Below are positions 135 to 528 of a stretch of 6,364 bases of DNA, piece after piece; the stretch's first letter is position 1, and each line of letters opens with the position of its first letter. The notes beneath the pieces were generated by a model that saw only the letters and a list, made by a program, of their open reading frames with translations, ran no database searches and was not told the origin of the DNA. The translations under genes and the position numbers were made by a program. The DNA is taken from the IMG/VR virus record IMGVR_UViG_2537561713_000009; one strand, 5' to 3'. The DNA is from a virus (lineage: Duplodnaviria > Heunggongvirae > Uroviricota > Caudoviricetes).

Positions 135-192
135 AAAAAAGGGCGGCAGAGCAGTTACGGAGTAAAACTGATACCGCCAAATGTCACCAGAA
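135..192 (-). ncRNA. dicF: DicF-like small RNA (prophage-encoded cell-division inhibitor sRNA that targets ftsZ mRNA in E. coli), ending in an intrinsic terminator
   Basis: Reverse complement of 135..192 reads AUUCUGGUGACAUUUGGCGGUAUCAGUUUUACUCCGUAACUGCUCUGCCGCCCUUUUUU, which matches my recollection of E. coli DicF almost base for base. GGCGG...CCGCC stem followed by U6. Lies downstream of the ydfA/B/C-like genes on the same strand, as in the Qin dicB operon. Exact ends not determinable from sequence. Confidence 0.7.
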
Positions 193-528
193 TATTGATA
201 ACAGAGGGCGTTGCAGCGGGGTTGTCACTTAAGCGTATGGTCAACCTGACAACCCGGTGTCCTCAACGGGGAAAGAATAACCCCGCCATACTTACCGCCG
301 CGCCATTTCGCGGATTGCCACAACCGGAAGCGCACGGTCGAATTAAATTTAACGACGGCTCTAAGGGAGAAGGACTTCGCCGTGCACTTTCGTGTTATGC
401 CCTGACTTTTCAGGGATATATCCTTTCAGTAAACTGTCAGTGCCGGATTCTTATCTGTGTCCGGCGCACGACCACACGTAGCAGCGTGTTGGTCTCCATT
501 TTTAATTCAGCCCTTAATGGAGGATAAA

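Follow-up and report, generated by a model that had tools for sequence, protein, structure and literature searches.

A standard dicF gene preceded by a conserved pseudoknotted RNA domain in a lambdoid prophage

IMG/VR virus record IMGVR_UViG_2537561713_000009 (Caudoviricetes; 6,364 nt, referred to below as the window) carries on its minus strand the dicF gene, encoding DicF, a small RNA (sRNA), and, upstream of it, a 9-bp inverted repeat. In a computational follow-up of an initial annotation of this region, we found that dicF is a standard one and that the hairpin formed by the repeat is well supported, by comparison of sequences, as helix Hc of a domain of about 115 nt (324..210, minus strand), predicted to fold into a four-helix junction with a pseudoknot between a loop and the junction. 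We think it probable that Hc lies inside the folded 5' domain of a 190-nt DicF precursor as one of its helices, and that this domain acts as the pro-domain of a modular sRNA cassette.

Structure and conservation of the leader domain

The inverted repeat consists of GGGTTGTCA at 219-227 and TGACAACCC at 247-255, which form a perfect 9-bp stem with a 19-nt loop (219..255, minus strand), exactly as described in the initial annotation. The hairpin had also been placed immediately 5' of DicF; the end of the 3' arm of Hc and the 5' end of DicF are in fact separated by 26 nt. Perfect 9-bp repeats with loops of 3-30 nt occur by chance at a mean of 0.74 per window, and 47% of dinucleotide shuffles contain at least one. 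The Hc hairpin is credible only because its homologues retain the pairing, not from the repeat itself.

Homologues were collected by blastn of phage genomes with window 135-400 and then by a pattern scan of viral contigs, which gave more than 100 further copies. Across these homologues, 95-96% of the alignment cells are paired, with replacement of UA by CG in sequences of the phage P1 type. Pair 131/155 is changed from UA to CG in 7 sequences and pair 126/160 from GC to AU in 2, and the two outermost pairs are frequently broken. The loop, which carries one strand of the pseudoknot, is more conserved than the stem, and its sequence GGUUGACCAU.CGC.U.AG is invariant in 52 sequences. A competing pairing, I5 (216-223 with 279-286), was rejected as it decays in divergent copies without compensation. 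Scanning viral contigs for stem variants (RCAGGTTGACCAT.CGC) yielded 83 loci with one true homologue, whose G.A mismatch was uncompensated, and a gapped pattern search over all of the homologous loci collected gave nothing further.

Alignments of 52 and 69 homologues define the leader domain at 210..324 (minus strand). Its predicted helices are P1 (324..317 with 217..210), Ha (313..309 with 302..298), P2 (296..294 with 258..256), Hb (285..281 with 271..267) and Hc (255..247 with 227..219), and the pseudoknot pairs GUAUGG (291..286) with CCAUAC (240..235) in the loop of Hc. In a MAFFT alignment of 52 distinct sequences, 95.3% of cells were paired, compared to 34-53% when the partners were slid, and 8 pairs (24 cells) had changed on both sides. 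The corresponding values were 96.1%, 32-55% and 9 pairs (31 cells) in an alignment of 69 distinct sequences that was built with, and fitted to, the covariance model itself. The covariation score of the domain was reached by 0 of 500 shuffles in either alignment.

Pairs changed on both sides are spread over the domain. In the pseudoknot, UA is replaced by CG in phage P1-type copies, with U.G intermediates; in helix P2, UA is replaced by CG in P7-type copies; in Hb, whose loop varies in length, CG/GC pairs are replaced by UA/AU in several lineages. Helix P1 has two G.U pairs in the window that are Watson-Crick pairs in cdtI-type copies, and these G.U pairs establish that the minus strand is the functional one. 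A P7-like copy (locus L026, 4663-4816, minus strand) has a G run and about 35 nt extra in the Hb loop; Hb tolerates large insertions.

The covariance model of the domain, R1, scored 172 bits on the domain of the window. With Rfam in permissive E-value mode over window 100-560, the leader domain belonged to no family at E<=10 and only DicF was found; the DicF family, RF00039, covers the 52-nt mature sRNA only, and the leader domain lies outside it. ARAGORN found no tRNA- or tmRNA-like gene, and the tRNA and C4 models of Rfam were also unmatched. Based on the Rfam scans and the literature, some older dicF and P1 papers aside, the domain appears to be undescribed.

The dicF gene and maturation of its transcript

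By cmscan, window 192..141 (minus strand) matches RF00039 with 76.9 bits (gathering threshold, 48; E = 3e-16) over model positions 1-52 of 52, with all stem pairs canonical. This is the sole Rfam match in the window at the gathering threshold, and it bears out the initial annotation, in which the minus strand at 135..192 had been recognized as DicF. In K-12 numbering the 53-nt sRNA lies at 141..193 (minus strand), as indicated by the Rfam match, alignment to Escherichia coli K-12 and RNAfold. It has the organization of DicF, with a single-stranded 5' seed (193..179) followed by a Rho-independent terminator hairpin (178..142, formed by RNAfold) and a U6 tract (135..140, read directly from the sequence); the U6 would make the 3' end of DicF and its usual Hfq-binding tail. 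Clearly, 193..135 (minus strand) is the dicF gene for the Hfq-dependent sRNA DicF, a repressor of ftsZ and other mRNAs.

Aligned to dicF of the K-12 prophage Qin, the gene shows three substitutions, each at a position that varies: U1A (window 193), G12A (182; GACAUUUGG in the window, GACGUUUGG in K-12) and G38A (156; CCGUAACUG in the window, CCGUGACUG in K-12). The latter two are the differences suspected in the initial annotation, and U1A is added by the alignment. It has been reported that ftsZ and pykA pair with the 3' region of DicF and xylR with its 5' end (PMC5069750). In RNAduplex predictions, which ignore intramolecular structure and Hfq, the UUUACUCCG/CGGAGAGAAA core of the DicF-ftsZ pairing was kept in both alleles (-38.5 versus -36.6 kcal/mol overall); G38A had zero effect, and G12A cost 1.9 kcal/mol in an extension outside the core pairing at the ribosome-binding site. 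Position 12 is G, A or U across homologues (Rfam consensus 'a'), position 38 is the final loop nucleotide of the terminator hairpin, and the exact allele (61 nt with flanks) is found in at least 324 complete E. coli genomes. Because position 12 is polymorphic, position 38 lies in a loop, the predicted ftsZ core is unchanged and the allele is widespread, the three substitutions are unlikely to change the target range of DicF importantly, contrary to what had been suggested at first. A12 could slightly alter pairing with targets of the DicF 5' end, such as xylR.

In K-12, a polycistronic transcript initiated at dicBp is the source of DicF (Ragunathan et al. 2023, PMC10448788, confirming Faubladier et al. 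1990). The same study showed that formation of the 53-nt DicF needs RNase E, that a 190-nt species owes its 5' end to RNase III, that both forms accumulate in stationary phase, and that a terminated ydfABC-dicF transcript (1146 nt) and a read-through transcript (1608 nt) both exist (PMC10448788). A 72-nt form with a 3' end made by RNase III has been described as well (PMC9438474). Between about 400, at the RNase III hairpin, and the dicF terminator, the window and K-12 share about 97% identity, and the flanks diverge. The endonucleolytic excision mentioned in the initial annotation is therefore established for a 97%-identical locus (PMC10448788).

Upstream of the leader domain lies a long imperfect hairpin (325..399, minus strand; core arms 392..380 and 337..325), detected as inverted repeat I1 and by RNAfold, which is the putative RNase III substrate. 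RNAalifold gave the same long hairpin (392..325) as the consensus of 42 distinct upstream sequences, and its 5' arm shows U.G to C-G and C-G to U.G changes between the window and K-12. The RNase III end was placed by size: 190 - 53 = 137 nt upstream of 193 is about 330, in the 3' arm of the hairpin. From K-12 homology and this arithmetic, RNase III would cut at about 330 in the window. K-12 homology also defines a 16-nt single-stranded linker, GCCCUCUGUUAUCAAU (194..209, minus strand), with the putative RNase E site at its 3' end, where cleavage would occur at about 194/193 (AAU|AUU). RNase E prefers RN|WUU, and AAU|AUU at the end of the linker fits this preference. The Hc hairpin itself contains neither of the two predicted cuts (about 330 and 194/193); the term 'processing or stability element', first applied to the hairpin, may reasonably describe the 115-nt domain as a whole rather than Hc by itself.

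Two alternative pairings were observed in this region. GUUGUG (324..319), in the 5' strand of helix P1, has a second possible partner in CAUAAC (399..394), which lies at the base of the RNase III stem. Through this alternative, which competes with helix P1, the transcript may have one fold before processing and the resulting 190-nt RNA another. Within DicF, 157..146 is complementary at 10 of 12 positions to 93..82, a segment 53 nt past the terminator. This duplex, in which G38A converts a G.U to an A-U pair, could form in read-through transcripts and underlie the RNase III-made 72-nt form.

Distribution of the domain and the prophage locus

Employing blastn, we found that the stretch 324..202, which includes the hairpin and leaves out DicF, matches phages with unrelated flanks. 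Identity is 89-91% in cdtI, 2H10 and Stx2c-converting phages, 86% in pPE4 (labelled Actinobacillus) and 76-81% in P1 and P7, and the stretch is present in about 480 P1-like plasmids. Five homologous loci, P1 and cdtI-type ones among them, had no Rfam DicF match even at E = 0.1, and their leader stretch matched no Rfam family. Conversely, a Salmonella enterica chromosome (locus L005, 3644-3695, minus strand) has a DicF gene (60.6 bits with Rfam) without the upstream leader domain. The domain and DicF are thus separable both ways.

What follows the domain is variable in sequence and constant in layout. A hairpin and a T-run are located 30-80 nt downstream of it in 126 of 126 instances, and the linker/seed and terminator units among these instances are of at least nine types, classic DicF being one. 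Loci representing the types are L012 (1624-1690); L014 (1614-1775); L037, L050 and L056; L072, L131 and L151; L111; L064/L139; L048; and L011 (2596-2650). Rfam recognizes none of these units, which are candidates for DicF-like sRNAs with novel seeds, both in P1/P7 and in cdtI, Stx2c and further E. coli phages. In pPE4 (L014), the linker, seed and terminator plus the first ~24 nt beyond are tandemly duplicated (1614-1694 and 1695-1775), so that two sRNA units follow one domain; this phage, although labelled Actinobacillus, has an E. coli-type dicA/ydaT region. A deletion variant (L024, 1624-1763, minus strand) has the upstream sequence 'AACGCGAAA' fused directly to Ha; it has lost the 3' arm of the RNase III hairpin and the 5' strand of helix P1, whereas the remainder of the domain is retained, as is a DicF-like seed, here with another terminator.

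The position of the domain relative to promoters differs among phages. In phage P1 it begins about 20-35 nt past the C1-controlled Pban start and overlaps an annotated 'dicF-like region' at the start of the ban operon (NC_005856, 68791-68892). That region shares Ha, P2, Hb, Hc and the pseudoknot with the window (76-81% identity; 85.6 bits with R1) and is followed by a terminator. It differs in lacking DicF (Rfam, E<=0.1), in having its own linker and terminator (GCCCAUCUUCGGGUGGGC), in lying directly after a C1-controlled promoter, and in a closing helix that, if formed, is made from other sequence. In cdtI-type phages the domain is found about 280 nt past a near-consensus, strong pL-like promoter, directly after another long hairpin, and in phage cdtI it is single-copy in the genome. 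The right operon of phage cdtI (L140, 36477-36665, plus strand) contains isrK (60 bits) and a C4 antisense RNA (68 bits), making three structured regulatory RNAs in one phage.

E. coli O157:H7 chromosomes contain window 100-420 with 100% identity. Matches of lower identity occur in 4571 of 5426 complete E. coli genomes, where the median number of sites is two per genome. Enterohaemorrhagic E. coli (EHEC) strains are reported in a review to have four dicF copies (PMC7873438). The identical O157:H7 locus is a prophage integrated beside yccA/tusE. On one side it has genes for a Rac-like repressor, relB, relE, DUF1391 (ydfA-like), ydfB and a gene in the ydfC position, and then the RNA region, past which are dicB, a DUF1482 gene, an exonuclease gene and an integrase gene; on the other side are YdaS/YdaT-like, replication and 'ECs1072 family' genes. 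The 'ECs1072' label, an annotation name only, suggests Sakai Sp4 or EDL933 CP-933M.

In the identical locus, dicB follows downstream at a distance of 145 nt from window position 100. The host element is a Rac/Qin-like lambdoid prophage with dicF in its early-left (dicB-type) operon, upstream of dicB; the polycistronic dicB-type operon named in the initial annotation is found there, with ydfA/ydfB/ydfC-like genes upstream and dicB downstream. The stretch between the DicF terminator and dicB (1..134, minus strand) is conserved and, by the annotation of the identical O157:H7 locus, untranslated. Its first ~85 nt are near-identical to K-12. The start of dicB lies about 45 nt past the left end of the window, and any read-through transcript has to traverse the stretch. 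The locus resembles dicBF of K-12 Qin in its full-length RF00039 match, its position between a ydfC-like gene and dicB, its ~97% identity and its terminator with a U-tail; besides U1A, G12A and G38A, it differs in its backbone, which has a Rac-like repressor with YdaS/YdaT, inserted relBE, another ydfC-like gene and integration next to yccA.

Several other features of the window and its relatives were recorded. The relB/relE toxin-antitoxin pair (1865-2343, minus strand) lies in the early-left operon between the repressor and the ydfA-like gene, where K-12 Qin has none. A 61-aa open reading frame (ORF) at 529-714 (plus strand), with a zinc-ribbon-like CxxC...CPEH arrangement (phrog_10133, unknown function), is situated between the gene in the ydfC position and the RNA region, and the dicF operon transcript is antisense to it. 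A perfect palindrome at 2809-2847 (15-bp arms, 9-nt spacer) between the repressor gene (2371-2772, minus strand) and a cro/YdaS-like gene (2881-3153, plus strand) is probably an operator; further perfect inverted repeats are at 1780-1807, 4747-4780 and 6209-6256. E. coli-type dicF loci of near identity also occur in metagenome-assembled genomes labelled Veillonella parvula, Collinsella sp. and 'Proteobacteria bacterium' (L007, L009 and L008), probably due to binning contamination.

Role of the leader domain

By extension from K-12, the 190-nt DicF precursor would have the domain as its 5' two-thirds. RNase III would cut the long hairpin just upstream of the domain, at about 330; transcription would end at the DicF terminator; and RNase E would cut the AU-rich linker 16 nt past the domain, freeing the 53-nt DicF. 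At DicF-type loci, the 5' strand of helix P1 may at first be held in the RNase III stem, and the RNase III cut would free this strand and allow the domain to close. A closed domain could insulate the sRNA from the upstream mRNA, supply a structured, protected 5' end to the long form, and leave the linker as the sole accessible single strand, so that RNase E would cut at one place. The cassette would then consist, in order, of a constant folded domain, a variable seed and a terminator.

In MicL-type sRNAs, structured elements flank a single-stranded AU-rich cleavage site, as they do here. Work cited in PMC9438474 provides the precedent that stem-loops steer RNase E so that MicL is processed precisely. 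MicL and other sRNAs derived from 3'UTRs or from within operons are also alike in that RNase E releases them from a longer transcript with a Rho-independent terminator at its end. The difference is that a conserved 115-nt pseudoknotted junction, common to unrelated seeds, is found here rather than a simple stem-loop; by analogy it may guide cleavage. The C4 RNAs of P1/P7 and the CI RNA of P4 (RF01695) are likewise small structured RNAs processed from early phage operon leaders. However, the domain has no Rfam C4 match, processing there is by RNase P as opposed to the RNase III and RNase E envisaged here, and a genuine C4 is present elsewhere in phage cdtI.

Several points weigh against the domain being simply a pro-domain. 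The identity of dicF and the structure of the domain are well supported, and its function is what we infer from them; the RNase III and RNase E positions are likewise carried over from K-12 by homology and size arithmetic. As the homologues are closely related, the covariation rests on few independent events, and helix P1 is poorly or differently formed in pPE4-type and phage P1-type copies. The Salmonella DicF without the domain indicates that the domain is not required for a DicF-type RNA. Moreover, the 19-nt loop and the junction are invariant from lambdoid phages to P1, more than a simple scaffold should require; this argues for a functional tertiary fold or for a specific partner, which could be a protein, another RNA or RNA polymerase. 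It is possible, if doubtful, that the domain represents an undescribed class of phage RNA that has its own function, controlling terminators by binding RNA polymerase or a protein or acting in trans as a decoy, and forming the constant part of at least nine cassettes with interchangeable seeds, including DicF and the P1 ban leader.

Such a function could be exerted in cis or in trans, and we regard either form as improbable. As a cis-acting transcription element (a put-like RNA acting on RNA polymerase, or another control of read-through), the domain would balance the sRNA against dicB or, in P1, against tRNAs and ban. Each instance does lie 30-80 nt before an intrinsic terminator, which transcription into the downstream genes has to pass, and K-12 makes both the terminated 1146-nt and the read-through 1608-nt transcripts (PMC10448788). 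The domain starts about 20-35 nt after the C1-controlled Pban in P1 and about 280 nt past a pL-like promoter in cdtI-type phages, in which an N-like protein was not recognized (PHROGs gave unknown-function families only), and the strong conservation of loop and junction suits recognition by a host machine. The put RNAs (putL/putR of HK022 and the putL-like RNA of HK639) are similarly structured leader RNAs of repressor-controlled early operons that precede terminators and require no dedicated protein, and the domain could act in this way. They are, however, about 70 nt long, with two stem-loops and a triplex and with left and right copies, whereas the domain is about 115 nt long, has a four-helix junction with a pseudoknot, and occurs once per phage with no right-operon counterpart. 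Model R1 was unmatched in the HK022 genome and in HK639, including the annotated putL-like RNA of the latter, whose fold is unrelated. In the window the domain is more than 1 kb from the operon promoter, and a terminator scan of the cdtI left operon, itself uninformative, showed no evident run of further terminators. Acting in trans, the functional RNA would be the ~137-nt fragment between the two cuts or the 5' body of the ~190-nt RNA, binding a protein or RNA as a decoy, sponge or cofactor, with DicF and the other seeds as passengers. This agrees with the conservation of the domain in very different phages regardless of the downstream unit, with a junction, pseudoknot and loop that are invariant, as is typical of a binding pocket, and with a 190-nt species stable enough to accumulate in stationary phase (PMC10448788). 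On the other hand, a released ~137-nt species is unreported in the literature examined on DicF, the domain has no known partner and no Rfam relative, and in 126 instances it always precedes an sRNA-like seed and a terminator.

We consider it very unlikely that the domain is the sensor of a riboswitch-like attenuator whose folding decides whether the DicF terminator forms. The layout of domain and then terminator resembles an aptamer with its expression platform, and in one long fold the domain sequence GGCGCGGCGG pairs with the terminator 3' arm CUGCCGCC in place of its own 5' arm. In other folds the domain and the terminator form together without overlap; the alternative partner would compete for the 3' arm in a kinetically unfavourable way; the pairing is impossible with the P1 terminator GCCCAUC/GGUGGGC, so that no conserved mutually exclusive pairing was found; and no Rfam riboswitch family is matched. 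Next to no weight is given to the 9-bp hairpin being a chance repeat, the RNase III site itself or a coding stretch, even though about one such repeat per window is expected by chance. Compensatory changes keep the stem, and sliding the partners destroys the pairing. Usual RNase III substrates are longer than a 9-bp stem, and Hc was rejected as the cleavage site since it falls short of about two helical turns containing the cut, the 190-nt end lying about 75 nt upstream of it at about 330, inside the hairpin 392..325. ORFs do overlap the region (225..335, minus strand, 36 aa; 195..527, plus strand, 110 aa), and some phage records annotate hypothetical proteins there. Because 1-nt indels in Hb among near-identical copies break any frame, a coding explanation is ruled out; the annotated ORFs also vary in length and start between phages.

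Published work already covers DicF, its presence in multiple copies in EHEC and its maturation through RNase III and RNase E, and the allele found here is common, so that dicF itself adds little; the structural result is the useful part. A pseudoknotted domain without an Rfam family is common to lambdoid prophages, Stx2c and cdtI phages and about 480 P1-like plasmids, while the seed behind it varies by lineage, which points to unstudied DicF-like sRNAs with new seeds in the phages of pathogenic E. coli. Should the domain have a function of its own, the DicF precursor would hide a second functional RNA. If the domain controls maturation, stability or read-through, it would offer a ready scaffold for designed sRNAs and would explain how these phages set the ratio of a toxic sRNA to the downstream genes, such as dicB or, in P1, ban and the tRNAs.

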